Assembly: GCA_964565775.1 (NCBI GenBank)
Contig: CAZMGB010000006.1
Span: forward strand, 82,941 to 146,940
Length of the DNA stretch: 64,000 nucleotides
Origin: an uncultured Dehalococcoidia bacterium
GTDB taxonomy: Bacteria > Chloroflexota > Dehalococcoidia > DSTF01 > JALHUB01
Direction: 5' to 3'
Each line of letters starts with the position of its first letter. Within the stretch, counting starts at the first letter, position 1. The notes below the pieces were generated by a model. That model was not told where the DNA came from, searched no databases, and saw nothing but the letters and a program-made list of their open reading frames with translations. Positions 7,401 to 51,903 of the stretch are shown in pieces. The position numbers were made by a program, and so were the translations under genes.

Positions 7401-10272
7401 CCGGGTCGTCGCCGATGCCCGCGACGCCAGGGGCAACGATGTCCACAGCGCGACATCGGTGTGGGTGAGCAGCGGCGAGTACGTAAGCTGGCGCGTCACT
7501 AACGACGACCGCATCGAGCTTGTGGCCGACAAGGCCGAGTACCAGCCGGGCGACACCGCCCGCATCCTCGTCAGCGCGCCCTTCGAGGGCAGTATCGGCC
7601 TTGTGACCGAGGAGCGTGGCAAGATCCTGAGCAGCCACGTCCAGGACTTCGAAACGAACAGCACGATCCTTGAGGTGCCGATCAGCGAAGACGACGTGCC
7701 AAACGTCTTCGTCTCCACGGTGCTCTTCAAAGCGCCGACCGCCGATAACCCGATGCCCGCCTTCAAGGTCGGCTACGTGGAGCTACCCGTCTCGATCGCC
7801 GAGAAGAAGCTGTCCATCACCATCGAGCCCAGCGCCGAACAGCTCGAGCCACGCGACGAGATCAGCTACACGATCACGACCCGCGACAGCAGCGGCAAAG
7901 GGGTGCCGGCGGAGGTGACGCTGGCCCTGGTCGACAAGGCGCTCCTCTCACTCACGGATCAGCAGGGCCAGGGCGCCCTCGAGGCATTCTGGAGTCGCCG
8001 CGGCCTGGGCGTCACCACGTCCTCCGCGTACACGGTCTCCATCGACCGTGCCAATGAGATCTCCCTGTCGCGCGAGGGCGGGGGCAAGGGAGGCGGCGGT
8101 GGCGGCGGCGCTCCCGGCGAGAGCCGTACCTTCTTCCCCAACACCGCCTACTGGAACCCCGATCTCCACACCGACGACAACGGTCGCGCCACGGTCACCG
8201 TCGAGCTTCCGGATACGCTGACGACATGGCGCCTGACCGCTCACGCCCTTACCAAGACGACGCAGGTGGGCGACGGCACCAATGAGGTTGTGACCAGCAA
8301 AGACCTCATCGTTCGCCCCGTTGTGCCCCGCTTCCTCATCGCCGGGGACACGCCTACCCTCAAGGCCATCGTCCACAACTTCTCGGACAAGGACCGCGAG
8401 GTGGAGGTGACCTTCTCGTCGGACGTGGTATCGCCGTCGGGCGAAAAGACGCAGAAGGTAGCCGTCGCCGCCGGCGAGCTGGGGGAGGTGAGCTGGGAGA
8501 CGACCGTCTCCCAGGACACGAGCGCCGACCTCAAGTTCGACGCCAAGGCCGGGGGTGGGCTCTCGGACTCGGTCGACGTCAGCGTGCCCGTGTACGAGTT
8601 CGTCTCGCCGGAGGTCACGGCCAGCGGCGGCGAGGTGGTGGATGAGGCCACCGAGGCCGTGAACCTCCCCTACTACGTCGACCCGTCCCGCGGCGAGCTC
8701 ACCGTGGACGTCGCTTCATCCCTCGTGGCCGGACTCGACGAGGGGCTGCACTCCCTCGAGGAGTACCAGTACGAAAGCGCCGAGCAGACGGTGGGCCGGC
8801 TGATCACGCGCCTGGCGCTGCACCGCGCCATCACAGAAGCAGGGCTGCCCGACACCCTGGGCATCAGCGAGGACCTGGACGGGCTGGTCGCCCGCTCGAC
8901 GCTGCGCCTCTACAGCGACCAGCACTTCGACGGCGGCTGGGGCTGGTGGATCAACAGCCCCAGTGACCCCTTCCTTACGGCCTTCACGATGTTCGGTCTG
9001 GGCCAGGCCATCCACGCGGGCTACACCGTGGACGACTTCGCACTGGAGAGGGCCAGCGATTACCTGCGTCAGGAGCTCGACCGCCCCTTCGACGTGGAGA
9101 GCCCCCAGGACCCCGACCTGCGGGCCTTCATCCTGCTGGCGATGGCCGAGGCGGGCCAGGGCGACCTGGGCCGCACCTATGCCCTGGCGGAGCAACGGGC
9201 CACCCTGGGACCCTTCGGCATGGCATCGCTCATAATGGCCATCCAGGAGCTCAGCCCCCAGGCCACGGACGACCCGAGGCTCAAGACGCTCATCTCCGAC
9301 CTCACGAACGCCGCCATAACCAGCGCCACCGGCAACCACTGGCAGGAGGAGACGCCCGACTTCGCCATCATGGGGACGAACGCGCGCGCGACGGCGGCCG
9401 CCCTCAGCGCCTTGATGCGCGTCGACCCCAATCACCCGCTGGTCGACGAGACGGTGCGCTGGCTCATGGTCGCACGCAGCGCGTCCGCCTCAGGCGGATG
9501 GGAGACCACCCAGGAAACTGCCTTCAGCGTCCTCGCCCTGGCGGAGTATATGGTCGCACGCGGGGAGTCGGGCGACTTCTCATATCGTGTCGAGGCGAAC
9601 GGCGAGACCGTAGGCGAAGGGGACGCGAAGGCCAGCGAGCCCGCCGCGACGAACGAGGTGACGGTCGAACTCAAAGACCTGCGCATCGGCGAGGAGAACC
9701 TGGTTCGCCTGGTGCGCACGCCGCCGGAGAGCAAGGGTAGACTCTACTACACGATGCACCTCCGCTATTTCACCCCCGCCGAGGACGTGGAGGCGGCCAG
9801 CCACGGCGTCGGCGTCGGACGCGACTACCTGCCGGCCGAGGGGGCGGCGGCAAGTATCGAATCGGTGGCCGTCGGCGACCTCGTCAAGGTCCGCCTTACC
9901 GTCTATGCGCCCACCGACCTGCACTTCCTTGTCGTGGAGGACTTCCTGCCGGCCGGCCTGGAAGCCGTCGATACCAGCCTCAAGATCACGAGCATAGAGG
10001 TGCGTGAGCTGCTCGCGGAGGAGCAACGCCGCATCTACGAGGAGCAGCGGCGCCAGGGGCTGTACTTCAACCCCTTTACGCACGTCGACATCCGCGATAA
10101 CCGGGTGGTGCTCTTCGCGAGCTTCGTCCCCAAGGGCACCTACGAGTACGTCTACGTCGCACGCGCCACCACAGCGGGCGAGTTCCACCTGCCCCCCACC
10201 AACGCCTTCGAGACGTACTTCCCCGAGGTGTGGGGGCGGACGGACGGTAGCCTGTTCACGGTGACCCCCTGA
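4408..10272 (+). CDS. Bacterial alpha-2-macroglobulin family protein (MG domains, A2M domain)
   Basis: The ORF 4288..10272 overlaps the PBP. The likely start is GTG 4408, preceded by aaagggga, and it opens an N-terminal TM anchor (VNALLSAARKPRFLIAAVIIALVL). The A2M hallmarks GGGKGGGGGGGAPGE...FFPNTAYWNPDL...TTWRLTAH are present. The thioester position reads YESAEQT rather than CxEQ. Confidence 0.85.
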   Translation: MNALLSAARKPRFLIAAVIIALVLASVGGGLAYMLTRPPSECPEGLCVESVSPTGDDVDRTTPVTIKFLSGVDKDKAEGALRVSPEAKGTLSWKENTLTFVPEWPGFARGVAYEVELATPEAHLPQGEPVSFSFATAGKLKVESVVPDPDATEVSITADLMVQFNRSVAPLTVLEEAPQGQILEFDPPVQGEGRWVNSSLYSFKPDGGWQPATHYVVTAPAALTDVLGGSLEKDYVWSFETVLPAVAEVSPADNAEFVGPLQAVKVTFNQPMDRAAAEAAFSLVSESSGASPTGSFSWSDDFTLVFKPSSPFEPEARYAATMPAGVPNALGSASTAGEERWSFTTVGPPRVASSDPANGETQASRFGVSIDFSNPMVRASVEDNVSLEPEPEDGPYFWWEMPNTLHIGLTFKPSSPYTVSLDGAKDRYGQPLPPFTVSFVTEPVEPSLSVMRSGQSGTYNAYLEPRVVARAINVSRVDFALYRLDRDTFVRFESQYNAASEYAPPATDLIRRWSENITNPPLDSPVTVSSDLLGVGGGKLDPGFYFLEVSAPGATYSDTIPLVVSKTNLTLKRTDTSLLVWALDMSTGQPLADLSLEIIDWQGKHIGDGTTGSDGIFEGTLPKPAPEDAYRPFFVVGDRPGDVALASSQWSAGISPWDFDLPAAYTTLDYAGHVYTDRPLYRPGETVYYKGILRTDDNAKYGLPPADPGATLSITDSMGHEILSSKIELSDYGTFDGELDLGPEASTGYYSIRIVMNEESIAWGSFSVAEFRKPEFEVDLSTDRDAYVNGDSIKADVTATYYFGAPTADSQVKWNVTSQDYIFRPDDYPEYSFIDFDQYESRFYGQPRSEGEGRTDAEGAFAFETPANVSSDLVSQAFRVEATVTDVNEQEVSASKEVVVHKADFYVGLKPEGYVYSAGEPAAVDIVSVDPEGKPRPDTPMTVSIFRRRWITARVSEPDGEQHYQSEPEDTLVEKHDVTTGSDATASVTFTPDKGGEYRVVADARDARGNDVHSATSVWVSSGEYVSWRVTNDDRIELVADKAEYQPGDTARILVSAPFEGSIGLVTEERGKILSSHVQDFETNSTILEVPISEDDVPNVFVSTVLFKAPTADNPMPAFKVGYVELPVSIAEKKLSITIEPSAEQLEPRDEISYTITTRDSSGKGVPAEVTLALVDKALLSLTDQQGQGALEAFWSRRGLGVTTSSAYTVSIDRANEISLSREGGGKGGGGGGGAPGESRTFFPNTAYWNPDLHTDDNGRATVTVELPDTLTTWRLTAHALTKTTQVGDGTNEVVTSKDLIVRPVVPRFLIAGDTPTLKAIVHNFSDKDREVEVTFSSDVVSPSGEKTQKVAVAAGELGEVSWETTVSQDTSADLKFDAKAGGGLSDSVDVSVPVYEFVSPEVTASGGEVVDEATEAVNLPYYVDPSRGELTVDVASSLVAGLDEGLHSLEEYQYESAEQTVGRLITRLALHRAITEAGLPDTLGISEDLDGLVARSTLRLYSDQHFDGGWGWWINSPSDPFLTAFTMFGLGQAIHAGYTVDDFALERASDYLRQELDRPFDVESPQDPDLRAFILLAMAEAGQGDLGRTYALAEQRATLGPFGMASLIMAIQELSPQATDDPRLKTLISDLTNAAITSATGNHWQEETPDFAIMGTNARATAAALSALMRVDPNHPLVDETVRWLMVARSASASGGWETTQETAFSVLALAEYMVARGESGDFSYRVEANGETVGEGDAKASEPAATNEVTVELKDLRIGEENLVRLVRTPPESKGRLYYTMHLRYFTPAEDVEAASHGVGVGRDYLPAEGAAASIESVAVGDLVKVRLTVYAPTDLHFLVVEDFLPAGLEAVDTSLKITSIEVRELLAEEQRRIYEEQRRQGLYFNPFTHVDIRDNRVVLFASFVPKGTYEYVYVARATTAGEFHLPPTNAFETYFPEVWGRTDGSLFTVTP

Positions 10273-26378: not shown

Positions 26379-26498
26379 TGGTGCCTCATTCTAGCATGGC
26401 GGCAAGCGGGCAACCAGAGCGATTCCGGCGCGAGGGCGCTGCCGGGGCCCGGTGTGCGGTCGCGGTCGCGTGGCCGACAGCGGCGCAGCGAGCTGGGA

Positions 26499-27374
26499 TC
26501 ACACGAGCCCGACTTGTTTTCGTTCGCCCTCGCTGAGAAGGTCAATTGCCATTATTTTGCCCGCTGAAGCGTGGTCCCTATCCGGCAGGAAGGCCAGGTG
26601 GAGTAGGGGATTCTTCTTCAGGTCTGGAACAAGTACCCAGTGCATGACCGCGATCTCACCCGAGTCGTAGCGTGATTGTCGCAAGAGTTGGGCAAGGAAC
26701 GCGAGATAGCCTCCTGGAAACGGCCGTCCGCCGCCTAAGGGGTCGGTGGGATCTGCAAGGCGGAGGATAACGCTGACCCACACGAAGATATCCGAAAACC
26801 TGTGGCCGCTGTAGAAGTGCCCAACTCTAGACTCACGTGTTAGGTTGAAAATGGCATCCACAGTGTAGGCAATAGTATCGTGTCGTAGAAACTTGTGGAT
26901 AGGCGAGTCGGCGGCAAGCTCGGCGTGGAGCCGTTGCAGGACTGCGCCTATGTGACTTCGGATGGCAGGGTGATCCTTCCAGATTAGCAGTATGTCTGTC
27001 GACGAACAGTCAGGGTGTTGGCAGCGTCCAGCTAGGAAGCGGGTAAGAGAACCGCCGCCCGGCGAGTCGGTCAAGATTATCGTCTTGTCTGGATAGAAGC
27101 CGCGAATAGAGGACGGTCCGGCAAGAGTAGCGGAGTCGGCCCAGGTGCCGCACAGAGGACAGATGCCGCGCAGGCTGTCCGTGACTTCTTTGACCAGTTC
27201 CTTACCGGAGAGGCGTCCGTCCATTAAGCGCTGGACAATTGCGTCGTAGTAGTTCGGGATGTCTAGAATGGCTATCCGGCTCCAGGTATGTCCGGATTGC
27301 ATGGATTGGAGAAAGTGAGATAGTTCGGAAGGCTTCCGTGGGGGAGTGGGCAGGGAAAAGGAATGAATGTCCAC
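26499..27374 (-). CDS. Hypothetical protein in a lower-GC islet bounded by tRNA-Gly repeats
   Basis: 291 aa with no recognised domain. Local GC is about 55-58%, against about 68% in the flanks. Confidence 0.4.
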   Translation of the reverse strand: MDIHSFSLPTPPRKPSELSHFLQSMQSGHTWSRIAILDIPNYYDAIVQRLMDGRLSGKELVKEVTDSLRGICPLCGTWADSATLAGPSSIRGFYPDKTIILTDSPGGGSLTRFLAGRCQHPDCSSTDILLIWKDHPAIRSHIGAVLQRLHAELAADSPIHKFLRHDTIAYTVDAIFNLTRESRVGHFYSGHRFSDIFVWVSVILRLADPTDPLGGGRPFPGGYLAFLAQLLRQSRYDSGEIAVMHWVLVPDLKKNPLLHLAFLPDRDHASAGKIMAIDLLSEGERKQVGLV

Positions 27375-27695
27375 TCTTCAGGCTCCGCTATGGCACAATC
27401 GCTTTGCGTCCGGGGCACACGGGAATTGTAATACAGATGTCAAGAGCGCGCCGTGTTTGGGGCTTGGTAGCGAAGGGGAGCCATGTCCATCGGCGGGTGG
27501 TCGGGATGTTTGCTGAGCCCAGCTCAGTCGCGTGGGGCGAAGATGCAGCCGCGACCGGGAGGTGGAGAGCGCCAGAAGCCGACCGGGGATGGGGGGCCAG
27601 CTATGGTGTGTTGGAGCGGGCGGTGAATGCTTGATAACTGTGGCCATTTCGGTTTGGGGTGCGCATTCCGGGGCTCAGCGCAGATGTTCGGATGT

Positions 27696-27732
27696 TTGGA
27701 AGGCAGGAGCTCTACCACTGAGCTACCCCCGC
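27696..27732 (-). repeat. Direct repeat: copy of the tRNA-Gly 5' half (nt 1-37, 5' end through anticodon loop) plus about 20 nt of diverged upstream flank
   Basis: The 37 nt here are identical to 26342..26378. The similarity continues in diverged form (ctcattctagcatgg against ctctattctagcacgg) into the 5' flank. This is a truncated tRNA pseudo-copy or an att-like repeat. Confidence 0.7.
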
Positions 27733-39184: not shown

Positions 39185-40345
39185 CTAGGCCACGCCGAAG
39201 TGAGCGCGGTTCCACTTCCGCCCCTCGTCGAGCATGGCGAGGAAGTTCTGCCGGGGAATGTAGTTGGCAGGGGTGTTGCCTGTGCTGAGGCAGTAGCCGG
39301 TGCCTTTGGCGGCGCAGACCGCCAGGATTTCGCGGGTGCGCTGGCGTACGTGCTCCTCGCTCCCCCGCGCCAGATCGTCCATGTCCACGCCTCCGAGAAT
39401 GGTGACGCGGTCTCCCCAGCGACGATAGACCTCCTCCACCGGCATGATCTTGTCCTCGAAGGAGTGCTTGGCGTCGATGCCAAGGTCTATGAGTTCGTCC
39501 ATGATCGTCTCCAGATTGCCACAGGAGTGGAGGAGGAAGGGCTTACCGGCGGCATGAACGATCTCGACGAGACGCTTGTGGTGGGGAAAGATGTACTTGC
39601 GGAGCACAGCCGGCGAGACGAGCGTGCCCGTGGCAAAGCCCATGTCGTCGCCCAGGAAGACCATGCCTACGTTGTCGACGGTGACTGCGTGAGCGACAGC
39701 GGCCGCCGTGAGCTCGCCCACTTTCTGGGAGATCGCCTCAATGAGCTCAGGCTGATCGGCCAGCGCGAAGGAGAAGGACTGCAGCCCCATCAGCCACGAG
39801 GTGTTTTCGAAGATGCCGCCGAAGTTCACGCAGATCTTCATTCCCTCGGGCACGACCGCGTTGAGGTACTCTATCGCGCCGTATCTGATCTCCTCCGGCT
39901 TCTGCCAGGGGTAGGCCTCGAAGTCGGCCCAGCTCTGGATGGGCCCGGTGCTCTCGTCCTGCCAGAACCGACTGCCGCCGGGCCAGTTTCCGAGGGCCGC
40001 GGTATCCGCCGCCACGCCGAAGTTGGCGCGTGGGAAGTTGAGGCCGGTCCACGTGTACACGTAGTCGTAGCCGCTCTCATAGCAGAAGCGAAGGGTGAGA
40101 TCGATGGCTGCACGGCCCCTGAGTGTGCGTGACGGCGAGGTGCGGTCGCCCCCGTCGCCGGCAAGAGCGAGTTCGTCCCAGGTGAACTTCTCGCCTAGGA
40201 CCGCTTCGATCATGCCCGGATCGGCGAACAGCTCGACGAACGGGACGGGGCCGGGAGGGCCCTGCCGGAACAGGGTGCGGCGCAAATTGTTGAAGTTGGG
40301 CTGGCGTTTCACCCGGAACCGCGGGCCGTTCGGTGCAGCTTTCAT
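39185..40345 (-). CDS. URO-D-family methyltransferase (MtaA/MtbA/CmuA-like methylcobamide methyltransferase)
   Basis: 386 aa. The URO-D fold has the Zn/thiol-activating motifs HSCGN and GYCLSTGN. It is an inverted paralogue (about 65-70% aa identity by eye) of the gene at 43661..44791. Confidence 0.75.
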   Translation of the reverse strand: MKAAPNGPRFRVKRQPNFNNLRRTLFRQGPPGPVPFVELFADPGMIEAVLGEKFTWDELALAGDGGDRTSPSRTLRGRAAIDLTLRFCYESGYDYVYTWTGLNFPRANFGVAADTAALGNWPGGSRFWQDESTGPIQSWADFEAYPWQKPEEIRYGAIEYLNAVVPEGMKICVNFGGIFENTSWLMGLQSFSFALADQPELIEAISQKVGELTAAAVAHAVTVDNVGMVFLGDDMGFATGTLVSPAVLRKYIFPHHKRLVEIVHAAGKPFLLHSCGNLETIMDELIDLGIDAKHSFEDKIMPVEEVYRRWGDRVTILGGVDMDDLARGSEEHVRQRTREILAVCAAKGTGYCLSTGNTPANYIPRQNFLAMLDEGRKWNRAHFGVA

Positions 40346-40559: not shown

Positions 40560-41483
40560 TCAGTCGAAGTACGCCGCCTCTGGGCTGTCTTTGAACGCCG
40601 CGTACAGCTCGTCGTAGTTCGCAATCAGGTCACGCAGCGGTTCGGGGTTCTGCCTGCGCGTCGTTACGGCCAGCGGCCTCGGCTTGAGATCGAGGAACGA
40701 CTGAACCCGATTGAACACGGCTCTACGATCCTTGAGCAGGTCTTCGAAGTACAGGGTGAGCTGCGGATGCTCGTGGAAGAGGCCGTCATAGTAGTCGGAG
40801 TCCCGCTCTATCTCCTTGAAGAACTCCCGGCACTCCGTCTCTGAGAGTGTCAAAGGGACTCGGAGCGACTTCCAGGCCGGCTCCCTCGGCCTGAGAAACC
40901 TCCACAATCGGTTGGTCGCCATCAGCGGGTGTCGCGCTGCCCCCGGCACGTTCGACAGCCTGAACTTACTGGCGAGCGTCGCCTTTCGATCTTCAGACCA
41001 TCCTCCGGTCCTCTGTGCGATTCTCAGCGACACGAGCATCCTCAGCAAGTTGCGCCTCCTGAGATGCAGCACACGCAGCTCCGTGTCCTCGACCAGCCCC
41101 TCCAGGAGCCCCGGAAAAGACGAGAAGTGGACATGGGGCATCTTGAAGCCGACGGCACGGATCGCCTTGGGATGCTGGCAGAAGATGCGCTCCCGGAGGA
41201 ACTTCCTCAAGTCCTCGTTCCGTAGCACCCGGTCCTCTGCGCTTGAGTTGTCATATCCTTCGACATGGTAGCCTATGCCGTCCATGATCGGGTTGAAGAG
41301 TTCACGAAAGCAGATGATGTTGGGGCTGGAGTTGAGTGATGAGGCGAGCATGGTAGAGCCAGCCCTGGCATAGGTCAAGATGATGAAGCGGACGTACTCC
41401 GTTGAGCCGATGTTGGTGGCTTGTGGCTTCCCTGTCGAGTCCGTGGCAGCCATCCTCCTCCCGGCGTTCGTCACCGGGCCCAT
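40560..41483 (-). CDS. Sulfotransferase-family protein
   Basis: The PAPS 5'-phosphate-binding-loop-like motif ILTYARAGSTML and overall Stf0-type sulfotransferase features are present. GC is somewhat lower than the surroundings. Confidence 0.55.
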   Translation of the reverse strand: MGPVTNAGRRMAATDSTGKPQATNIGSTEYVRFIILTYARAGSTMLASSLNSSPNIICFRELFNPIMDGIGYHVEGYDNSSAEDRVLRNEDLRKFLRERIFCQHPKAIRAVGFKMPHVHFSSFPGLLEGLVEDTELRVLHLRRRNLLRMLVSLRIAQRTGGWSEDRKATLASKFRLSNVPGAARHPLMATNRLWRFLRPREPAWKSLRVPLTLSETECREFFKEIERDSDYYDGLFHEHPQLTLYFEDLLKDRRAVFNRVQSFLDLKPRPLAVTTRRQNPEPLRDLIANYDELYAAFKDSPEAAYFD

Positions 41484-41756
41484 CCTATTTCAGCGATACC
41501 ACGGATTGCAGTCAAGTCACATGCCGAGCCCGCATTGTTCGAGTGCCCGGCTCACTTGGGCTCGCTCCCCCTGAGGAGGTTGTGGGCGGCGTGGTAGACG
41601 GCACAGGCGCAGACACGCGGGGCCGGCCACGTTCCGTTGTTCCTGTCTGCGCCGTCCGTTTGGCACTTGCCCAAGCGCGGACGACATAGCACAATTGCGC
41701 TCGACAATTGCGGGAGCGCCCGAGAGGGTCCATTTTCGGCGGGAGAGCCTCTGTCC

Positions 41757-42926
41757 ATGGGAAACGGCGCCGTACCCATAAGCCGCGAGCCTCGGTACAA
41801 GGAGGTCATCGCCCGCTGGGAGGCGTTCTGGTCGCTTGAGGACGTGGGCCAGCCTCTGTGGATGGTCCCCACGCACCCCGTTCTCACCGCCACCGCGACT
41901 GGCCACGTCCCCATGCGGCCCTTGCTCCAGGACCGGGAGACGCAGCTCAACGCTCAGGTGGGACTGCTCCGGTGGCGCGAGTCCGTCGACCTGGGAGACG
42001 ACTTCGTACCACATCTTCAGGCCCACCAGGGGGTCACGGTCTTTGCCTCGGCGTTCGGCTGCGAGGTCGAATACTTCGACCACACGCTGCCCTGGGCCCA
42101 CCCCGTGATCAGACCTGAAGACCCGCCGGAGAAGGTCTACGAGCTGCCATCTCCCGCGATCACCGACGGCCAGCTCGGCACGATCCTTGAGTGGGGAGAC
42201 TACTTCGTCGAGCGAACGGAAAGACGCTACGCTCTGGCGGTGACCGACCTTCAGGGCCCTCTGGACAGCTCCTACCTGGTCTGGGAGCCGATGGCGTTCA
42301 TGGTCGCCATGAACACCAACCCCAGGGAAGTGCACCACCTGATGCGCCTGATGACCGACCTGATCATCGCCTTCGTCAAGGAGCAGCGCTCGCGCGTGCC
42401 CGAGTTCATGGCCTGCCACTTCCCGCCCGTCTGGCTTCCCGACGGAAGCGGCATCAGTATGAGCGACGACTGCCTGGCCGTCCTCAGCCCCGCCCTCTAC
42501 GAGGAATTCGTTCTGCCTTATGTCAACGAGTTCTCCGACGAGTTCGGGGGTGTGTTCATCCACTCCTGCGGGAACTTCATGCATCAGCTCAACAACCTCG
42601 AAAAGGTGCACAACCTGCGAGGCCTGAACTTCGAGGCGTCGGAGATGCCCTTCGAGGCCGTATGGGAACGCTTTGGCGGCCGGACGGCCATAGTAGTCCA
42701 CCGGGGCCTCAACAAGCAGATCCACTTCGATTCAGAGGCTGACTACGTGCGGCACGTGCTGCGGGTCAAGACCCACGACCGCGGCCTCTGCGTGTTGGTG
42801 TATCCGCCCGCGACGCGGAGGACGGCGCCTGACAGTCATGCCTCCGCCGCGATCTCCGGGACGGAGGCGGTGTCCCTGATGGATTTCGTTGGGCAAATGC
42901 GCGAGCTTCTGGCCCCTGTTCGCTGA
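41757..42926 (+). CDS. URO-D-family protein (corrinoid methyltransferase-like), paralogue 2
   Basis: The ORF starts at TTG 41637. An ATG at 41757 with a GGGAGAG RBS is the likely start. URO-D-like HSCGN motif; about 390 aa. Confidence 0.65.
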   Translation: MGNGAVPISREPRYKEVIARWEAFWSLEDVGQPLWMVPTHPVLTATATGHVPMRPLLQDRETQLNAQVGLLRWRESVDLGDDFVPHLQAHQGVTVFASAFGCEVEYFDHTLPWAHPVIRPEDPPEKVYELPSPAITDGQLGTILEWGDYFVERTERRYALAVTDLQGPLDSSYLVWEPMAFMVAMNTNPREVHHLMRLMTDLIIAFVKEQRSRVPEFMACHFPPVWLPDGSGISMSDDCLAVLSPALYEEFVLPYVNEFSDEFGGVFIHSCGNFMHQLNNLEKVHNLRGLNFEASEMPFEAVWERFGGRTAIVVHRGLNKQIHFDSEADYVRHVLRVKTHDRGLCVLVYPPATRRTAPDSHASAAISGTEAVSLMDFVGQMRELLAPVR

Positions 42927-42952: not shown

Positions 42953-43609
42953 GTGGACCTTTCATCTATCAAGCAGCGGCTGGTTGAGGGGGACGCCCCG
43001 GGGACGGCCGAGGGCACCCGAGAGGCGCTGGCCGAAAAGATCCCGCCGGAGACCATACTCAAAGATGCCCTCATGGTCGGCATGGAGGAGGTGGGTGACC
43101 TCTTCTCCCGCAACGAGTACTTCGTACCTGAGCTCCTACTATCGGCTCGGGCCATGTATGCGGCGCTCGATGTCCTGCGCCCGCTGCTCGTGGGCAGCGG
43201 CTACGAGCCGGCCGGGAAGGTGGTCATGGGCACCGTCCAGGGCGACCTGCACGACATCGGCAAGAAGCTCGTGGGCATGATGCTCGAGGGCAGCGGCTTC
43301 GAGGTCGTCGACCTGGGGGCCAACGTCGCACCCGAGCGCTTTGTGGAGGCCATCAAGGAGAGCGGCGCCAAACTGGTGGGTCTCTCCGCGCTCCTCACCA
43401 CCACCCTCCCCGCCATGGAGGAGACGGTGCGCGCTATCCGCCAGGCGGAGCTCGCGACCGAGGTGCACGTCATGATCGGCGGCGCCCCGGTCACTGACTC
43501 CTTCGCCCAGCAGATCGGGGCCCAGGGCTACGCGCCCGACGCCTCCTCCGCTGCCGCTCTCGCTCGGCGACTGCTCGACCTGCCCGCTCGGCAGGGCGGC
43601 CCCGCCTGA
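42953..43609 (+). CDS. Corrinoid (B12-binding) protein, MtaC/MtbC-like
   Basis: N-terminal B12-binding cap (4-helix) domain, then a Rossmann B12-binding domain with GDLHDIGKK (DxHxxG). GTG start with a GGAGGTG RBS. Confidence 0.9.
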   Translation: MDLSSIKQRLVEGDAPGTAEGTREALAEKIPPETILKDALMVGMEEVGDLFSRNEYFVPELLLSARAMYAALDVLRPLLVGSGYEPAGKVVMGTVQGDLHDIGKKLVGMMLEGSGFEVVDLGANVAPERFVEAIKESGAKLVGLSALLTTTLPAMEETVRAIRQAELATEVHVMIGGAPVTDSFAQQIGAQGYAPDASSAAALARRLLDLPARQGGPA

Positions 43610-43660: not shown

Positions 43661-44791
43661 ATGCAGCACCAACCTGACTTCGAGAACCTTCGCCGGACGA
43701 TCCTCCGCCAGGGTCCGCCGGGCCCCGTGCCCTTCTTCGACCTGTTCGCCGACCCGGGCATGGTTGAGGCCGTGCTGGAGGAGAAGTTCCCCGTAAACCT
43801 GCACCGCTACATCGAAGAGCCCACCCTGGAGTTTCCCGAGGATGAGCTGCTGGGTCTGATGAAGTCAATCGAGATGTACGTCCGCTTCTGCCGCGAGGTG
43901 GGCTACGACTACGTGTTCATGGTGACGGGCTTCAGCCTTCAGCGAACCTTCCAGGCCGCCGCCGACACCGCCACAGCCGAGAACTGGCCCGGTGGTCAGC
44001 GCTACTGGCAGGATGAGAGCACCGGCCCGATCCAGAGCTGGGCGGACTTCGAGGCCTATCCCTGGCCCAAGGCCGAGGATCTGAACCACGCAGCGCTCGA
44101 GTACGTCAACGCCATCTTGCCGGAGGGGATGAAGATCGCGGCATTCATGTACGGCGGCATCTTCGAGCACTCTACCTGGCTCATGGGCCTGCAACCCTTC
44201 TCTTTCGCTCTCCGCGACCAGCCCGACCTGATAGAGGCGATCTGCCAGCGAGTGGGCGAGCTCGCCACAGCCACCTGCGCCCAGGCCGTCACCATTGACA
44301 ACGTCGACATGGTGTTCCTCAGCGATGACCTTGGATTCTTCAGTGGCACCCTCGTTTCGCCGGACGTGATCCGTCGCTACATCCTCCCCCATTACAAGAA
44401 GATCACCGACACTGCGCACCAAGCCGGCAAGCTGCTCGTCTTCCACTCCTGCGGGAACATGTACAAGCTAATGGACGACCTTGTCGACGACGTCGGCATC
44501 GACGCCAAGCACTCGTTCGAGGACAAGATCGTGCCCGTGGAGGAGGCCTGCCGTCGCTGGGGTGACCGGGTCGCGATCCTGGGTGGAGTGGACATGGACG
44601 TGCTCGGTCGGGGCACGGAAGAGCAGGTTCGGGCTCGCACCCGTCAAATCCTGGAGGTCTGCGGAGTCAAAGGCACCGGCTACTGCCTGGGCAGCGGCAA
44701 CACGGCCGCTAACTACATCCCAAAGCAGAACTACCTGGCCATGCTGGACGAGGGGCGTCGCTGGAACCGAGAGCATTTCGGGGCGGGCTAG
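43661..44791 (+). CDS. URO-D-family methyltransferase (MtaA/MtbA/CmuA-like), paralogue 3
   Basis: 376 aa. Same motifs as 39185..40345 (HSCGN, GYCLGSGN). GGAGG RBS. Confidence 0.75.
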   Translation: MQHQPDFENLRRTILRQGPPGPVPFFDLFADPGMVEAVLEEKFPVNLHRYIEEPTLEFPEDELLGLMKSIEMYVRFCREVGYDYVFMVTGFSLQRTFQAAADTATAENWPGGQRYWQDESTGPIQSWADFEAYPWPKAEDLNHAALEYVNAILPEGMKIAAFMYGGIFEHSTWLMGLQPFSFALRDQPDLIEAICQRVGELATATCAQAVTIDNVDMVFLSDDLGFFSGTLVSPDVIRRYILPHYKKITDTAHQAGKLLVFHSCGNMYKLMDDLVDDVGIDAKHSFEDKIVPVEEACRRWGDRVAILGGVDMDVLGRGTEEQVRARTRQILEVCGVKGTGYCLGSGNTAANYIPKQNYLAMLDEGRRWNREHFGAG

Positions 44792-44888
44792 GGCGGTCGT
44801 GGGCGGGGGTCCCCAGACCCGCGCGACTCCGTCGGGGTGTGAAGACCCCAACTTGCGAAGATGCATCCGCGTGGAGGTGAGGTAAGCC

Positions 44889-45770
44889 GTGACTAACGAT
44901 GATTCGCCGGCCGCGAGCCCAAGTGCACAACTGGGCATCCTCAAGCTGCTAGGTCTGGTAGAGGCCTTCGACCCAACTCGACGTTTCAAGCTCGTTCGTC
45001 ACCAAGAGCAAGGCCTTGACCTGCAGGACTTCCCCAAGGACTGGCTCGAAGCCTACCAGGCCTTCCAAGAGAAACCAGTCTTCGACGGGCTTGATTTCAT
45101 CGTTTCCTTCATTGGAGCTGGCCGCACCCAGGCGCGTCTCGTGGGTGTCTACGAAGTCCTGGGACGAAAGCCAGGACATGCGGGACGCCTGCCGGAAGGG
45201 TGCCCCCATAAAGAGTGGCTGGATTCCCATTACTTCTATCAGATGCAGCGGCTATCTGCATTCGAAGCGCTTGAGGGCAGGGTGGTAATCGAGTGGGGCA
45301 AGGGAACTAGGCGCTGGCATCAAAGGCCAACGAACAAGGAGGTGGTCCAAATCCTGCCCCAGGGTCAGCCCGTCGCGATGTTCGACGACTACCTCGGGTT
45401 CACACTGAGGTACGACCAGCTGAAGGACCTGTATCGCAGGCCCGAGGTCAATAGGGAATGGCGCGCTCGCTTGAGCGCAGTTGCAGGCGTCTATTTGATC
45501 CTTGCCACGACGACAGGGGCACAGTACGTCGGCTCGGCGCATGGGGTAGAGGGGTTCTGGGGCCGCTGGGCAGCGTACGCGAAAGACGGGCACGGGGGGA
45601 ACAAGCTGCTGAGCGATCTCGTGGAGAAAGACCGTGACTACCCAGAAAAGTTCTCCTACTCGATTCTTCAGATACTCCCACCGACCTTTGCCCGAAGCGA
45701 AGTGCTGAAATGGGAGGGCTTGTACAAGCAGAAGCTGGGTAGCCGGAGCGTCGGTTTGAATGTGAATTGA
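44889..45770 (+). CDS. Protein with C-terminal GIY-YIG nuclease-like domain and N-terminal domain of unknown function
   Basis: The C-terminus has GVYLILATTTGAQYVGSA...R...H..GGN...E (a GIY-YIG-like core). GC is about 55%, against about 68% for neighbours. It lies inside an otherwise co-directional methyltransferase operon. Confidence 0.5.
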   Translation: MTNDDSPAASPSAQLGILKLLGLVEAFDPTRRFKLVRHQEQGLDLQDFPKDWLEAYQAFQEKPVFDGLDFIVSFIGAGRTQARLVGVYEVLGRKPGHAGRLPEGCPHKEWLDSHYFYQMQRLSAFEALEGRVVIEWGKGTRRWHQRPTNKEVVQILPQGQPVAMFDDYLGFTLRYDQLKDLYRRPEVNREWRARLSAVAGVYLILATTTGAQYVGSAHGVEGFWGRWAAYAKDGHGGNKLLSDLVEKDRDYPEKFSYSILQILPPTFARSEVLKWEGLYKQKLGSRSVGLNVN

Positions 45771-45836
45771 GTGCCTCGGGTTCCAGCCACCGGCACCCCG
45801 TCTCTGGCGAGGTTCACCGCCTCTTAAAGCACTTCC

Positions 45837-47021
45837 ATGAAGGAGTCGCAGGCCATGCTCCCCCGGGAGCGCGTCCTCACGGCGCTTAACCACGAAGAGC
45901 CCGATCGCGTCCCCATCGACCTGGGCAGCACGAGGGTCACCGGCATCTGCCTGGACGCCTACGAGGGGCTCCGTGATGCCCTGGGCCTGGGCCAGCGCGA
46001 GCTGCGGGTGGTGGACCGCAGCCAGGGACTGGCCGGACCGGACGAGGACGTGCTGGAGGCGCTGGGCGTCGACTTCCGGCCGGTGTGGACGAACCCGCCT
46101 TCGGGCGGCGAGCCACCCGTTGCTCAGGAGGGGGAATACGAAGTCTACTTCGACGAGTGGGGCTGTCGACGGAGCCGCCCCCGCTCGGGCGGCCTCTACT
46201 TCGATATGACCGAGCCGGCCATAATGGAGCCCAGCATGGAGGCCCTGGAGAAGTTCCGCTGGCCTGACGTCGACGACTCCGCGCGCTACGAAGGGCTGCG
46301 CGGGCTGGCGCAGCGCCTTCGCGAGGAGACGTCCTACGCTCTGGTCGGCCACTGCGATTTCGGCCACGATATGCTGGGGTCCTTCCTCAACGTGCGCGGC
46401 TACACGGAGGCGATGCTCGACCTGGCCGCCCACGCGGACTTCGTCGAGGCATTCATGGAGGGGGCAACGCGACTGGCCCTGCGGGCCTGGGAGCACTTCC
46501 TGGAGCAGGTGGGCGAGCTGGTGGACGTGGTGCTCTGCTACGACGACCTGGGCATGCAGGACCGCCCCCTCATCTCACCCGCGATGTACCGGCGACTGAT
46601 CAAGCCCTACCACGGCCGCGTCATCGCCGCCATCCACAAACGCACCCCGGCGAAGGTGTTCTTCCATACCGACGGCGCCGTGGCCGAGTTCATTCCCGAT
46701 TTCATCGAGATAGGCGTAGACATCCTTAACCCTGTGCAGGTATCGGCGGCCGGCATGGAGGATACGGGCGCCCTCAAGAGGCGCTATGGCAAGAACCTGG
46801 TCTTCTGGGGCGGGGCCTGCGACTCCCAGAGGGTTCTCCCCTTCGGAAGCCCGGAGGACGTCCGGCTCGAGTCGCGACGTCGCATCGCCGACCTGGCGCC
46901 GGGGGGAGGCTTCGTCTTCGCCCCCGTCCACAATATTCAGTGCGACGTTCCGGGCGAGAACACTCTCGCTTTCTTCCAGAGCGCGCGGGAGGCCGGCCGC
47001 TACCCGGTCGCCGGCCCCTAG
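45837..47021 (+). CDS. URO-D-family protein (corrinoid methyltransferase-like), paralogue 4
   Basis: 394 aa. N-terminus PRERVLTALNHEEPDRVPIDLG is typical of the MtaA/URO-D family; URO-D fold. Confidence 0.65.
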   Translation: MKESQAMLPRERVLTALNHEEPDRVPIDLGSTRVTGICLDAYEGLRDALGLGQRELRVVDRSQGLAGPDEDVLEALGVDFRPVWTNPPSGGEPPVAQEGEYEVYFDEWGCRRSRPRSGGLYFDMTEPAIMEPSMEALEKFRWPDVDDSARYEGLRGLAQRLREETSYALVGHCDFGHDMLGSFLNVRGYTEAMLDLAAHADFVEAFMEGATRLALRAWEHFLEQVGELVDVVLCYDDLGMQDRPLISPAMYRRLIKPYHGRVIAAIHKRTPAKVFFHTDGAVAEFIPDFIEIGVDILNPVQVSAAGMEDTGALKRRYGKNLVFWGGACDSQRVLPFGSPEDVRLESRRRIADLAPGGGFVFAPVHNIQCDVPGENTLAFFQSAREAGRYPVAGP

Positions 47022-47030
47022 ATCAGCATT

Positions 47031-48689
47031 ATGTCAGGTCCGCATACCGGAAACACTGTGCGCGTCCGCTTCCATGACTTCGACTCCGAGGTCGAGGTGG
47101 AACGCGGGAAGACCGTTCTCGAGGCGGTGCGCCAGGCCGGCCTCGCGCTGGAGTCGGAGTGCGGCGGCCGCGCCACCTGCGGAAGCTGCCGCGTCCGCTT
47201 CCTCCAGGGCGCCCCCGCGCCCGGCGCCGACGATCGCCTGCTCCTCGACGACGAAGACATCGCTCAGGGGTGGCGCCTCGCCTGCCAGACCACGCTCACA
47301 GAGGACTGCCGCATCGCCCTCCCGGCGGCCGTCGCCGAGGGCGGGCTGCGCATCCTCACCGAGACGTACGGGATCGGAGAGGCTCCACCGATCATCCCAA
47401 GCACCGCCGTCGGTGCGTACGGCGCCGCCATCGATGTCGGTACGACCACAGTGGTCTGCTACCTGCTGGACCTCGCGCACGCGCGCCAGGTCGGCGTCGC
47501 CTCTTTCGCCAACCCGCAACGGCGACTGGGCCCGGATGTCATCTCCCGCATCGTCTACGCCCACCAGAGCCGCGAGCACCTGATCGAGGCCCGCGATTGC
47601 CTGGTCGAGGCGGTAGAGGAGGCGCTGGTGGCTCTTTGCCGCGAGCACCGCCTGCCGCTGGACGCCCTATCCCGCATCACGGTGGTCGGCAACCCCACCA
47701 TGCTCCACCTTCTGTGCGCCGTCGACCCCTGGTCACTGGGCATAGTGCCTTACCAGCCCGCGTTCACCGACGCAGCCGCCGTCGCCGCGGGCGAGGTGGG
47801 CTTCCGCCGTCTGGCCGGGGCCGAGCTGATTCCTCTGCCGGGCGTGGCGGGACATCTGGGCGCCGACGCCGTCGCCGGTCTACTGGCGCTGGGCCTCTCC
47901 GGGCGCCGAGGGCTGTTCCTGTCCATGGACATGGGCACCAACGGCGAGCTGCTGCTCGTCTCAGACGATGACGCCGTCGGCGCTTCCTGCGCCGCCGGAC
48001 CCGCTTTCGAGGGGGTGCACATCTCTTCGGGGATGGCCGCCCTCCCAGGCGCCGTCGAACGGGTGGACGAGGAGGACGGACGGCTGGCACTTGAGACCAT
48101 CGACGGCGCCGCGCCCTGCGGCATCTGCGGTTCAGGACTCGTCGACGTCGTGGCGCTGCTCGTGCGCCGGAGAATGCTGACGACCGGCGGACGCCTGCCC
48201 GAGCCCGCCGAGCTTCCCGAAGGCCTGCCGCGAGACCTGAGCCAGCGCCTGCGAGCGGACGACGAAGGCCGCCGTTTCGTCCTCTACGAGGATGGCGCGG
48301 GCCCGACCGTGGCCCTGACACAACGCGACATCCGTGAGGTGCAACTGGCCAAGGCCCCCATCCGTGTAGGGGTAGAGGTGCTGCTCGAGGAGATCGGCGC
48401 TGGGCCGAACCAGGTGGACGCCGTGTTCGTGGCCGGGGCCTTCGGCAGCTCCATCCGCCCGGCCAGCCTGCTGGCCCTGGGCATCCTGCCTACCGCCATG
48501 ACGGGCCGCATCCACCCTGTCGGCAATCTGGCCGGAATGGGCGCCAAAGTGGCCCTCGCCTCGGACGAGCGCCTGGAGGAGGCCCGCCGCCTCGCCCGCC
48601 GCATCCGGCACGTGGAGCTGATGCTGCGAGAGGACTTTCACGCCCGCTTCGCCGACCACATCCCGTTCCCGGAGCCGTCTCAAACATGA
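47031..48689 (+). CDS. Corrinoid reductive activase (RACo/RamA family: N-terminal [2Fe-2S] ferredoxin + ASKHA ATPase, DUF4445)
   Basis: Plant-type ferredoxin motif CGGRATCGSCRV...C, then a DUF4445/ASKHA domain (IDVGTTTV, MDMGTNGEL). The ORF ends with an ATGA overlap onto the next gene. Confidence 0.85.
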   Translation: MSGPHTGNTVRVRFHDFDSEVEVERGKTVLEAVRQAGLALESECGGRATCGSCRVRFLQGAPAPGADDRLLLDDEDIAQGWRLACQTTLTEDCRIALPAAVAEGGLRILTETYGIGEAPPIIPSTAVGAYGAAIDVGTTTVVCYLLDLAHARQVGVASFANPQRRLGPDVISRIVYAHQSREHLIEARDCLVEAVEEALVALCREHRLPLDALSRITVVGNPTMLHLLCAVDPWSLGIVPYQPAFTDAAAVAAGEVGFRRLAGAELIPLPGVAGHLGADAVAGLLALGLSGRRGLFLSMDMGTNGELLLVSDDDAVGASCAAGPAFEGVHISSGMAALPGAVERVDEEDGRLALETIDGAAPCGICGSGLVDVVALLVRRRMLTTGGRLPEPAELPEGLPRDLSQRLRADDEGRRFVLYEDGAGPTVALTQRDIREVQLAKAPIRVGVEVLLEEIGAGPNQVDAVFVAGAFGSSIRPASLLALGILPTAMTGRIHPVGNLAGMGAKVALASDERLEEARRLARRIRHVELMLREDFHARFADHIPFPEPSQT

Positions 48690-49600
48690 GTGGCGCGGGT
48701 GGGCCGAAAGACGCGCCCCTCGGCCGCGAGCTGTCCCGCTGTCCGCTGGTCTACGACGGCTCCAAGGGAGTCTATCTGTCGGAGCGACTGGCGTCCGTCG
48801 GGCGCTCGCCCGGAGACGCCAGCGAGTGGCTGAACCTCCTCTCGCCGAAGGTCGTCCGGCAGATGCACCGCGAGTACATCGACGCCGGCGCCCAGATGAT
48901 CCAGACGAACACCTTCAACGGCAATCGACTGCGTCTGGAGGCCTACGGACTGGGCGACCGTGTGCACGAGGTGAACGTCGCCGCCGCCCGCATCGCACGC
49001 GAGGCCGCAGGCGATGACGTGTGGGTCGCGGGCGTTGTGGGCCCGAGCGGAAAGCTCCTCGCCATGGGCGAGGTGAACGAGCGGGCCCTCGTCGGCGCCT
49101 TCGCCGAGCAAGCCGCGGCCCTGGCCGAGGGTGGTGTAGACCTGTTCCACGTCGAGACCATGAGCGACTTGACCGAAGCGAGGGCCGCCGTCGAGGGCGT
49201 GCGCCGTGTCGCCGATCTGCCGCTGCTCCTCACGATGTCATTCGACACCGGGAAGCCGGAGGCGCTGCGCACGATGATGGGTGTGACGCCCGCACAACTG
49301 GTGGATGCGGCCCGGGAGATGGAGCTCTTTGGTCTCGGCGCCAACTGCGGTCGCGGCCTGGAGGGCTACCAGGAGCTGGTCCGGGCGCTGGCGCAGCCCC
49401 AGGGCGCGCTCGTCGCCAAGCTCAATGCCGGCATCCCGCGCATGGAAGGGTCTCAGGTCGTCTATGACGGCACGCCGGAGAGGATGGCCGCATACGCCCT
49501 CTGGTGCGTCGAGAACGGCGTCAGCATCGTCGGGGGCTGCTGCGGTAGCACGCCCCGCCACATCGAGGCCATGGCTCGAGCGATTGCCCGGATGGGGTAA
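48686..49600 (+). CDS. Homocysteine S-methyltransferase-domain protein (MetH Hcy-binding / BHMT family, Pfam S-methyl_trans)
   Basis: IQTNTF, GANCGRG and [11 protein letters not shown] match the Zn-binding Cys triad region of the Hcy-binding barrel. It is translationally coupled (4-nt overlap) to the RACo gene. Confidence 0.8.
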
Positions 49601-49677: not shown

Positions 49678-50751
49678 ATGGCAAATTCCGAATCGCCCCT
49701 GCAAGCGTACCTGAAGCCCGTTCCCACGCCACCGGGCGTCAGCAGCCGCGAGATCGTGCGCCGCGCCGTTGAGTTCGACGACCCGCCACGCATACCGTAC
49801 AGCTTCATCCAGCCGCTGGAGTCGGACTTCGTGGAGCTGGCGGTAGTCACCCCCAGCCGCATCGAGATGTCGAACGTCCCGAAAGGAGAGTTCATCGTCG
49901 ATGAGTGGGGCGTGGGAGTGCGCAGCTCGGGGACGAGCTGGGGCCACGCCGAATCGCATCCGCTGGCGGACCTCAACGCCCTGGACGGCTACAGCTTCCC
50001 CGACGTCACGAACCGCGAGCGCTTCCAGGCGGCAGCGGGGCTGGCGAGGGCGGGCGACGCAGCCGGCAAGTACGTCGTCGGGGCGGACCCGATCCTGGGC
50101 ATCGAGCGCCTGCGGCTGCTCGTCGGCTTCGACAACCTCATGGTGGCGCTGTACACGGAGCGTTCGCAACTCGACCGCCTGATCGACAGGCTGGTGGACA
50201 TGACGCTTGAGGTCGTGCGGATGTACGCGGACATGGGCAACGTACACGGCTTCATGACCTGGGAGGACTGGGGCCTCCAGACCACGCTCCAGATCAGGCC
50301 GGCGCAGTGGCGCGAGATCTTCAAGCCGCGCTACTCACGCATCGTCCAGGCCACGCACGCCGCCGGCATGCACTACCTCTTCCACTGTTGCGGCCAGATC
50401 CTGGACATCATTCCGGACCTCATCGAGATCGGCGTCGACGTGCTCCAGCTCGACCAGCCCCGGCTCATGGGCGTGGACCACCTCGCAGACGAGTTCGGGG
50501 GCAAGATCTGCTTCTGGAACACGGTGGACATCCAGTGGTCGCCCGACCCTGAAGTCACGCTCGATGAGCTGAGAGCCGAAGTCAAGCACATGGTGGGTGC
50601 CTTTGATCGATTCGGCGGAGGCTTCATCGCGCGGCAGTACCCCCAACCCTGGGACATCGGCATGCCTCGCGAGAAGCACCAGGCGATCTACGAGGCGTTC
50701 ATGGAATACGGCTGCGGCCTGCGCCCGGAGCCCGGCGAGGCCGGAAGCTAG
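49678..50751 (+). CDS. URO-D-family protein (corrinoid methyltransferase-like), paralogue 5
   Basis: 357 aa URO-D-like fold with an HCCGQ motif. Confidence 0.6.
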
Positions 50752-50772: not shown

Positions 50773-51903
50773 ATGGCACCGAAGCAAGAGATGACCCCAC
50801 GGGAGCGGCTGCTGGCCGCCCTCCGTCGCCAGCCCTGCGACCGCGTCCCCTTCACGCCGCTGGTGGAGGGCTACTTCCAGCTATCACTGCCCGACGGGCG
50901 GACGCGACACATCGCCGACCTCCAGTACGAGATGTCGGGCCACATGCTCGTCCGGGCGGGGGTGCTGCGCATCAACACGCCCCTCTGGCTGGGCGCGACC
51001 GCCACGGACCTGGCGGCTGGCGTCGAGCAGCGGGCGTCGACCGTAGACGGCGACATCATCCACACCGTAGAGACCCCCGTCGGCAGCTTGACGTGGCGCC
51101 TCCGCTTCGCGCCCGAGAGTCCCTACATCCCCTGGGTCATCGAAAACCGCATCCGCACCGTCGAAGACATCAGGACGTTCCAGTACCTCATCGAGCGGAC
51201 GACGTTCGAGCTCGACACGCGCTACTTCGAGAGCCAGACGTCCTACGTCGGCGACCGAGGGATCGTGGCCATCCTGGGACCGACCTCCCCTCTCCAGCAG
51301 ATGATCAACTTCGAAATGGGGCTCGAGCGCGTGATCTACATGCTGGCCGACCACCCGGACGAGATGCACGAGATGCTGGACGCCTACCACGCCAAGCAGG
51401 CCGCAATGTGGCGTCTCATGGCCGAGGTGCCGGCCGAGGTCGCCTTCGTCCACGACAACCTGTCCAGCACCACAACCTCGCGCCCCATGTACCGCACCTA
51501 TGACCGGCGTTATGTCAATGAGTACGCGGACATATTGCACGCCAGCGGCAAGACCTTCCTCACCCACTGGTGCGGCAAGCTCACCGGCTTCGCGAAAGAC
51601 GTCGCCGAAGCGCGCCAGGACGGCATCTCAGACGTTACGCCGCCGCCAACGGGCGACCTCGACATCATCGAGGCGCGCCGCACCTGGGCCAAGCGGTTCG
51701 TCCTGCTCGGAGGGATCGACCCGACGCTCTTCGCCCTGGGCACGCCTCAGAAGATGGAGGCCTACGTAACCGACCTGCTGGAGCGGATGGGGCCGGACCG
51801 ACGCGGCTTCATACTCGGCAGCGGCGACGCCGTCCCCTACGGCACCCCGGCCGAGAATCTCCGCGCGGCCGCCGACACGGCCGCCCGCTTCCCCGTGGCG
51901 TGA
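50773..51903 (+). CDS. URO-D-family protein (corrinoid methyltransferase-like), paralogue 6
   Basis: 376 aa. N-terminus PRERLLAALRRQPCDRVPF is the family signature. The motif is THWCGK. Confidence 0.65.
   Translation: MAPKQEMTPRERLLAALRRQPCDRVPFTPLVEGYFQLSLPDGRTRHIADLQYEMSGHMLVRAGVLRINTPLWLGATATDLAAGVEQRASTVDGDIIHTVETPVGSLTWRLRFAPESPYIPWVIENRIRTVEDIRTFQYLIERTTFELDTRYFESQTSYVGDRGIVAILGPTSPLQQMINFEMGLERVIYMLADHPDEMHEMLDAYHAKQAAMWRLMAEVPAEVAFVHDNLSSTTTSRPMYRTYDRRYVNEYADILHASGKTFLTHWCGKLTGFAKDVAEARQDGISDVTPPPTGDLDIIEARRTWAKRFVLLGGIDPTLFALGTPQKMEAYVTDLLERMGPDRRGFILGSGDAVPYGTPAENLRAAADTAARFPVA

Follow-up and report, generated by a model that had tools for sequence, protein, structure and literature searches.

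A probable UzuA (Uzume) homologue inserted in a corrinoid methyltransferase operon of an uncultured Dehalococcoidia bacterium

Uzume is a single-gene anti-phage system; PMC12926258 credits it to the phage-protection screen of Millman et al. 2022, whose bioRxiv version does not use the name. It is listed among validated defence systems with its mechanism given as unknown (PMC10482375, PMC12926258), is mostly plasmid-borne within the B. cereus group (PMC11811056), and is counted in a preprint among the GIY-YIG single-gene systems, with a GIY-YIG-like domain noted (10.1101/2024.10.26.620412). CMoRE/PD-T4-3 is a single-chain GIY-YIG type IV restriction endonuclease for 5-hydroxymethylcytosine (5hmC) and glucosyl-5hmC (PDB 9u75, 9u7z), and is the one single-chain defence enzyme of the GIY-YIG type with a solved structure (PMC12923530). 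The gene described here, a candidate member of the Uzume family (UzuA), lies on the plus strand of a 64,000-nucleotide (nt) stretch of contig CAZMGB010000006.1, referred to below as the window, from an uncultured Dehalococcoidia bacterium. It stands between two URO-D family genes, UROD_c and UROD_d, in a corrinoid-dependent methyltransferase operon. Taken as a whole, the locus is probably best explained by the horizontal insertion of a UzuA defence nuclease whose cutting is directed by a reader domain.

The gene and the parts of its product are as follows.

44873..44882, plus strand: Shine-Dalgarno-like GGAGGTGAGG, strong, 6-11 nt 5' of the GTG, read from the sequence
44889..45770, plus strand: UzuA (Uzume) homologue open reading frame (ORF), probable family member; GTG start, 293 amino acids, stop codon 45768-45770
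44931..45353, plus strand: N-terminal domain, residues ~15-155, proposed DNA or modified-base reader (AlphaFold2 model, fusions, weak Foldseek matches)
45354..45482, plus strand: linker, residues ~156-198, with invariant D167-Y168 and helices at 175-183 and 189-196
45483..45767, plus strand: C-terminal GIY-YIG nuclease domain, residues 199-293 (95 amino acids), with profile and structure matches to I-TevI

Family membership and the nuclease domain

Judged by profile matches along its whole length, the window protein very probably belongs to the UzuA family. Residues 27-293 align with positions 14-278 of the 278 in the PADLOC UzuA model PDLC03973 (E = 1.2e-83, 278.9 bits), a second PADLOC UzuA model, PDLC03974, is matched at E = 4.9e-47, and PHROG 26160 (function unknown) at E = 3.6e-28. 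A Pfam scan of the full protein gives nothing at E <= 0.01 for either domain. In a first reading of this DNA, called here the original prediction, the ORF had been placed at exactly the coordinates confirmed here, and its N-terminal 200 residues had been called unannotated. That description holds for Pfam, where there is no match above threshold, but not for the PADLOC and PHROGs models, which cover the region. One of the roles suggested at that stage, a compact defence nuclease, gains support from the full-length UzuA match. The UzuA family is already described, and the window gene adds a member to it; an anti-phage role of the window protein is predicted from this membership.

Searching 5.8 billion proteins recovered 319 UzuA homologues, among them proteins of metagenome-assembled genomes (MAGs) of Dehalococcoidia, Chloroflexota, Thermoguttaceae and Pyrinomonadaceae to which NCBI gives the name "GIY-YIG nuclease family protein". 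In tblastn searches, homologues are found on 420 plasmid records (Klebsiella 199, Enterobacter 69, Bacillus 33), a plasmid-rich distribution that fits the report on the B. cereus group (PMC11811056); the Bacillus plasmid copies are 36-44% identical across 91-95% of the length. Among 50,697 phage records, a homologue appears in only three, two of which come from Klebsiella phages and are 84 and 120 kb long. The neighbouring genes wholly differ among the window and the other loci compared (L002, L005-8, L110, L111 and L113-115), and no partner gene is conserved in any UzuA locus examined, which fits both a single-gene system and a mobile gene.

A close homologue with 77% identity lies between thiamine-biosynthesis genes in a Dehalococcoidia MAG, and another, with 72% identity, follows ATP synthase, murA and mreB genes. 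Others are flanked by genes for a DinG-like helicase and a PHP-domain protein, or lie beside HigB, HepT-MNT and AbiEi toxin-antitoxin genes. In Thermoguttaceae the homologue P0111 separates MoxR from DUF58 in a Bat-type operon; together with two small ORFs, it breaks the conserved MoxR-DUF58-BatA order (L113/L114, 8001-8891; L115, 2869-3759).

The C-terminal domain carries the motif GVYLILATTTGAQYVGSA (residues 200-217), a GIY...YVG core made up of G200-V-Y202 and Y213-V-G215. A profile of 76 family sequences matches the I-TevI catalytic domain (1ln0) at E = 5.7e-5, and the single UzuA sequence searched against the PDB gives a marginal I-TevI match (E = 0.23). The AlphaFold2 model of UzuA has a mean predicted local distance difference test score (pLDDT) of 90.7, and Foldseek superposes it on I-TevI (1ln0/1mk0) with a target-normalised template modelling (TM) score of 0.69-0.71 and probability 1.0. 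The Pfam GIY-YIG family PF01541 is matched by 52 of the 76 family members at E <= 1, the best at 9.3e-5. With these profile, fold and Pfam matches, the GIY-YIG-like core of the original prediction is borne out.

Y202, Y213, R226, Y230 and N238 are invariant across the family, and conservation reaches 90% or more at H235, E276 and N291; the alignment pairs E276 with E75 of I-TevI, and N291 with N90. As the catalytic residue set of the domain is complete, the domain looks catalytically competent. R226 lies four residues into a helix (222-233) in the model, and from this position we infer that it is the equivalent of the catalytic R27 of I-TevI; the sequence alignment puts it opposite I-TevI R30, three residues later. 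The R-x3-Y spacing in UzuA resembles that of UvrC.

The N-terminal domain and the proposed mechanism

The N-terminal domain is modelled by AlphaFold2 as a confident alpha/beta fold with six strands (pLDDT mostly >90). When the domain is searched in isolation with Foldseek, its best neighbour is CMoRE/PD-T4-3 (9u75, E = 0.018, probability 0.77), and the other weak neighbours are ASCH (5y6b, 2p5d), EVE (2hd9) and YTH (YTHDC1) domains. Matches in the Foldseek viral library are to a PD-(D/E)XK protein and to DUF3850/ASCH-type proteins. Weak as they are, these neighbours agree in kind.

The stronger evidence comes from domain architectures. A phmmer search of 1.8 billion representative sequences returned 552 matches to this domain alone. 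In P0230 it is joined to an HNH nuclease that matches the PADLOC "Type IV methyl-directed restriction enzyme" model (mREase_IV PDLC03656, E = 1.3e-23), and in P0173 it stands between DUF4268 and an HNH nuclease that matches the same model (E = 3.5e-8). P0261 joins it to the Pfam domain Nmad3 (nucleotide modification associated domain 3, E = 6.4e-21); the gene context of P0261 is uninformative. Residues K34, V36, R37, H38, Q57, Q60, F65, F74, Y117, W136, G137 and W143 are kept across the fusions, and the stretch corresponding to the UzuA linker is missing from the HNH and Nmad3 fusion proteins. The proteins with this domain and without GIY-YIG include P0146, and among the fusion partners there is an unannotated tail of ~650 residues. 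Many matches to the domain are 130-190 amino acids long and may be stand-alone copies or fragments.

Type IV enzymes made of a reader and an HNH domain include SRA-, EVE- and YTH-nuclease fusions. A portable domain in the reader position, ahead of interchangeable nucleases, follows the construction principle of type IV enzymes, and thus points to UzuA being a modification-dependent, type IV-like nuclease. The architecture of UzuA is of a type that fits, and no DNA methyltransferase gene is adjacent. In the mechanism proposed, the N-terminal domain would be a reader that picks out some feature of phage DNA, a modified base being the likeliest; this recognition would direct the GIY-YIG domain to cut that phage DNA, and the host DNA would be spared, being without the mark. 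By analogy with enzymes of this construction, such a type IV-like, modification-dependent mechanism is tentatively proposed for UzuA, with a chance that falls a little short of even.

Among the fusion partners, HNH belongs specifically with the type IV methyl-directed enzymes and Nmad3 is a nucleotide-modification-associated domain; CMoRE, the one single-chain GIY-YIG defence enzyme of solved structure, depends on modification (PMC12923530). With these three points against it, it is rather unlikely that UzuA defends without reading a DNA modification, its N-terminal domain instead sensing a DNA sequence or structure, a replication intermediate, RNA or a phage protein and then switching on a non-specific GIY-YIG nuclease, possibly in abortive infection. 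Such a sensor would agree with the binding of RNA by PUA-like folds, for example ASCH and YTH, and with the published listing of the Uzume mechanism as unknown. It would also agree with the likeness of the N-terminal domain to PUA-like folds and CMoRE being weak, and with the fusions showing a portable targeting module only.

A reader-directed UzuA defence nuclease is preferred here, and several observations weigh against it. The fold likeness of the N-terminal domain to modified-base readers is weak (TM 0.2-0.4, no match with E < 0.009), and a 36-sequence profile of the domain, compared with PDB sequences, retrieves only OlmO, Stn1 and HNF1, all at E > 0.1. The nuclease fusions mark the domain as a portable targeting module without showing that it reads a modification. 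A literature search returned no paper on the mechanism of Uzume, and the membership from which the anti-phage role is predicted is itself a matter of sequence alone. The surroundings of the window gene and of most related loci are housekeeping genes, with no defence island. In the nuclease domain, PF01541 stays below its gathering score for the window protein (15 versus 22.6 bits, E = 0.031); this shortfall is offset by the match of the family profile to I-TevI in the PDB and by the fold match. The Pfam check proposed with the original prediction was therefore sub-threshold, while the profile-based side of it was positive (E = 5.7e-5).

If the type IV-like reading is true, it gives a mechanism to the catalogued, uncharacterised Uzume system, and the N-terminal domain might become a modified-base reader reagent, as proposed for CMoRE.

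Insertion at the UROD_c/UROD_d site

The site is delimited by the following features.

43661..44791, plus strand: UROD_c, URO-D family corrinoid methyltransferase gene (Pfam PF01208, E = 1.1e-20), stop codon 44789-44791
44792..44888, plus strand: leader of UzuA, 97 nt, G+C-rich, with short hairpins; counterpart in L036 at 4131-4227
44802..45785, plus strand: inserted DNA, ~984 bp, made up of leader, UzuA coding sequence and ~15 nt; boundaries roughly +/-10 nt
45786..45854, plus strand: ancestral UROD_c-UROD_d spacer, now 3' of the insert, which aligns with the spacers of L032-L035
45855..47021, plus strand: UROD_d, URO-D family gene (Pfam PF01208, E = 4.2e-19), conserved start ATG at 45855; called as 388 amino acids on the Logan contig

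UzuA is transcribed in the same direction as both URO-D neighbours. The spacers measure 97 nt upstream and, downstream, 84 nt if counted up to the conserved ATG (45855) or 66 nt if counted up to another ATG (45837), in keeping with the co-directional gene and short spacers described in the original prediction. An antisense ORF of 414 amino acids (45252-46496, minus strand) overlies the 3' half of UzuA as well as the beginning of UROD_d. With a third-position GC of only 0.67 and an overlap with two homology-supported genes, it is considered a high-GC artefact and no gene.

Related operons were found among metagenome contigs by a scan with the UROD_d protein, and the window proteins were then mapped on these contigs. 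The UROD_d orthologues are 79-84% identical and the UROD_c orthologues show 80-87% amino acid identity. In four of the contigs (L032-L035) the site is empty, with UROD_c and UROD_d directly adjacent and separated by spacers of 87-94 nt; in L035 the order is B12-binding gene, UROD_c, UROD_d, RACo and homocysteine-methyltransferase-like gene, and the 87-nt spacer lies at 5914-6000. In a further contig, L036, UzuA (4228-5112, 80.7% amino acid identity) comes right after UROD_c and is followed by an extra UROD_c paralogue (5362-6477). From GCCACCGGCAC (45786) on, the sequence has its homologue in the empty sites, in the spacer after the UROD_c stop, and junction alignments place the start of the foreign DNA ~10 nt past the UROD_c stop codon. 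The limits of the insert, 44802-45785, follow from this alignment of occupied and empty sites. Thus, ~1 kb of foreign, lower-GC DNA is inserted a few bases past the stop codon of a URO-D gene.

The ends of the insert carry no terminal inverted repeats or target-site duplication, only short repeats at chance level, and no integrase or transposase gene accompanies it. Among GTDB genomes the orthologous-operon matches have at most 45% identity, too distant for comparison, and an exact-match look-up of the flanking proteins returned the window's own Logan contig only, or none. Across this family of operons, the content of the spacer just 3' of UROD_c varies: in L030 a 502-residue ORF (3269-4777), which by eye resembles a solute-binding protein, occupies the same site together with the extra UROD_c paralogue seen in L036.

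The composition of the gene differs from that of its surroundings. UzuA has a G+C content (GC) of 58.4% and a GC at third codon positions (GC3) of 69.0%, the upstream URO-D gene 62.9% (GC3 84.9%) and the downstream one 67.8% (GC3 87.6%). The window mean over 882-bp windows is 65.8% (standard deviation 2.5%); only 0.6% of these windows are as GC-poor as UzuA, and all the others lie within one region at ~26450-27700. The UzuA GC is below that of the host DNA in every locus measured, as in the following.

L036: UzuA GC 59.3%, host DNA GC 64.4%
L002: UzuA GC 54.8%, host DNA GC 68.2%
L005: UzuA GC 54.9%, host DNA GC 64.3%

The GC dip claimed in the original prediction is therefore real, and the windowed analysis suggested there places the gene at the low extreme. 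The figures given for it need correction, ~55% being too low for the gene and ~68% not applying to both flanks. Horizontal acquisition, also claimed there, is supported by the empty site in four related operons, by the low GC at every locus and by homologues in unrelated contexts; the comparison of related operons that had been suggested as a check finds the gene absent in L032-L035 and present in L036.

Divergence between the window gene and the L036 copy indicates purifying selection on UzuA, with a ratio of nonsynonymous to synonymous substitution rates (dN/dS) of 0.37; the flanks are tighter, at 0.15-0.22. The synonymous rate (dS) is 0.30 for UzuA and 0.43-0.70 for the flanking genes, and the leader is identical at 91 of 97 nt (93.8%), while the adjacent coding sequences, at a dS of 0.3-0.5, are ~85-86% identical. 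From the lower dS and the well-preserved leader, the insert looks somewhat younger than its flanks, and recombination via the flanking homology could have passed it between the window and L036 lineages once these had split. The leader may be under constraint. No Rfam family matches it, its RNA fold is no better than that of shuffled sequence (z = -0.94), and it has no counterpart at the other UzuA loci compared; a known riboswitch and a family-wide mobile-element end were both rejected as descriptions of it on these grounds. No sigma-70-like promoter or terminator was detected in the leader, 44792-44888. This negative result makes co-transcription, put forward in the original prediction, plausible, though no more than that, and UzuA may be carried on the transcription of the operon.

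A naked, single-gene intergenic insert of ~1 kb, free of integrase, transposase, inverted repeats and target duplication, is also what would be left by a selfish free-standing homing-type endonuclease that cuts the empty UROD_c/UROD_d spacer and is copied in by recombinational repair, with defence secondary. Presence and absence vary among related genomes at exactly the same site, similar single-gene insertions are seen in other operons (thiamine, MoxR-DUF58, after mreB), the insert looks younger than its flanks, and the catalytic domain is closest to I-TevI, all of which agree with homing. This explanation, which was among the options of the original prediction, is nevertheless improbable. 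The domain order is reversed, with GIY-YIG at the C-terminus, and the other domain is unlike NUMOD, helix-turn-helix or zinc-finger modules. The group I intron endonuclease family TIGR01453 (NCBIfam) is matched with 16.8 bits against a cut-off of 56.05, and the PADLOC homing-endonuclease model (HEase) is matched at E = 0.0089 in the catalytic domain only. Homologues are nearly absent from phages and common on plasmids, the full-length match is to a family that owes its place in the defence catalogues to a screen for phage protection (Millman et al. 2022, cited in PMC12926258), and the window has a single UzuA copy.

That UzuA is a domesticated host gene, such as a repair nuclease or operon factor, ancestral at this site and lost in some relatives, would suit its co-directional position with short spacers, the failure to find a promoter or terminator of its own, and its presence at the same position in L036 with a divergence broadly like that of the flanks, but is very improbable given its absence from four related operons with an intact spacer, a GC3 16-19 points under that of the neighbours in both lineages, homologues of 72-77% identity in wholly different neighbourhoods and other phyla, and no tie to corrinoid chemistry in Pfam, NCBIfam or gene context.

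A horizontally inserted UzuA defence nuclease is thus preferred to both. UzuA is unrelated to the chemistry of the corrinoid methyltransferase operon, and genome annotation should treat it as a mobile defence nuclease of the Uzume type, apart from the corrinoid methyltransferase pathway. The locus shows that, in uncultured high-GC bacteria, single-gene defence systems can settle in housekeeping operons at a distance from defence islands. A wider proposal, slightly less likely than the type IV-like mechanism by itself, has three parts: the ~140-residue N-terminal domain would be a hitherto unrecognised, very divergent PUA-like modified-base reader that has been combined in turn with GIY-YIG, HNH and Nmad3 partners; Uzume would be a widespread type IV GIY-YIG family; and naked 1-kb genes may spread among related genomes by allele replacement at the spacers of housekeeping operons.

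The surrounding cluster includes these further genes.

39185-40345, minus strand: URO-D family paralogue
40560-41483, minus strand: sulfotransferase-like gene
41637-42926: URO-D family paralogue
42953-43609: B12-binding corrinoid protein gene
47031-48689: RACo-type reductive activator gene
48686-49600: homocysteine-S-methyltransferase-like gene
49678-50751: URO-D family paralogue
50773-51903: URO-D family paralogue

The description of this region as a methyltransferase operon with URO-D genes, made at first reading, is correct: it is a corrinoid-dependent cluster of URO-D paralogues with a B12-binding protein and RACo. The segment 39185-51903 is unusually dense, with at least six URO-D paralogues to one corrinoid protein, one RACo and one S-methyltransferase-like gene, which suggests a multi-substrate methyltransferase or demethylase locus.

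Elsewhere in the window, the GC minimum over 882 bp (56.3%) falls in the low-GC region at ~26450-27700, where an ORF of 291 amino acids (26499-27374, minus strand; GC 56.4%, GC3 62.7%) has no Pfam or PADLOC match and may be another horizontal acquisition. A class A penicillin-binding protein gene (1862-4393, plus strand; transglycosylase and transpeptidase) is followed by a bacterial alpha-2-macroglobulin gene for 1994 amino acids (4288-10272, plus strand); both are unrelated to UzuA. Penicillin-binding protein and alpha-2-macroglobulin genes are a known pairing.

Comparison with known systems

The catalytic domain of UzuA is closest to that of I-TevI by profile and by structure, and UzuA shares with the I-TevI/Seg enzymes a presence/absence polymorphism at an intergenic site. 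In I-TevI/Seg, however, the GIY-YIG domain is N-terminal, whereas in UzuA it is C-terminal and follows a beta-rich domain of 155 residues. UzuA has no NUMOD, helix-turn-helix or zinc-finger DNA-binding region, and its gene lies outside any phage, intron or intein. Membership in the I-TevI/Seg group was rejected on the TIGR01453 score, the reversed domain order and the rarity of the gene in phages.

UzuA and CMoRE are both single-chain proteins with a GIY-YIG domain and a separate sensing domain. Their domain order is reversed, the nuclease being N-terminal and the sensor C-terminal in CMoRE and the nuclease C-terminal in UzuA, and the UzuA motif, GVYLI, is without the third Tyr of the GIYxY that defines CMoRE. 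The sensor domains of the two show no sequence-level similarity. Membership in CMoRE/PD-T4-3 was rejected on the order, the motif and the lack of a PADLOC PD-T4-3 match at E <= 1.

In the reader and HNH type IV enzymes (mREase_IV PDLC03656), as represented by P0230 and P0173, it is the UzuA N-terminal domain that holds the reader position. UzuA differs from them in using GIY-YIG as its nuclease, and its reader domain belongs to no Pfam family.

With Uzume the differences concern setting and divergence. The window gene lies inside a housekeeping operon of a high-GC uncultured bacterium, away from any plasmid or defence-island setting, and its product is only ~36-44% identical to the Bacillus homologues. 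The two are nonetheless alike in the full-length model match, in a length of ~280-295 amino acids, in the two-domain build, in being encoded by a solitary gene and in belonging to a plasmid-rich family.

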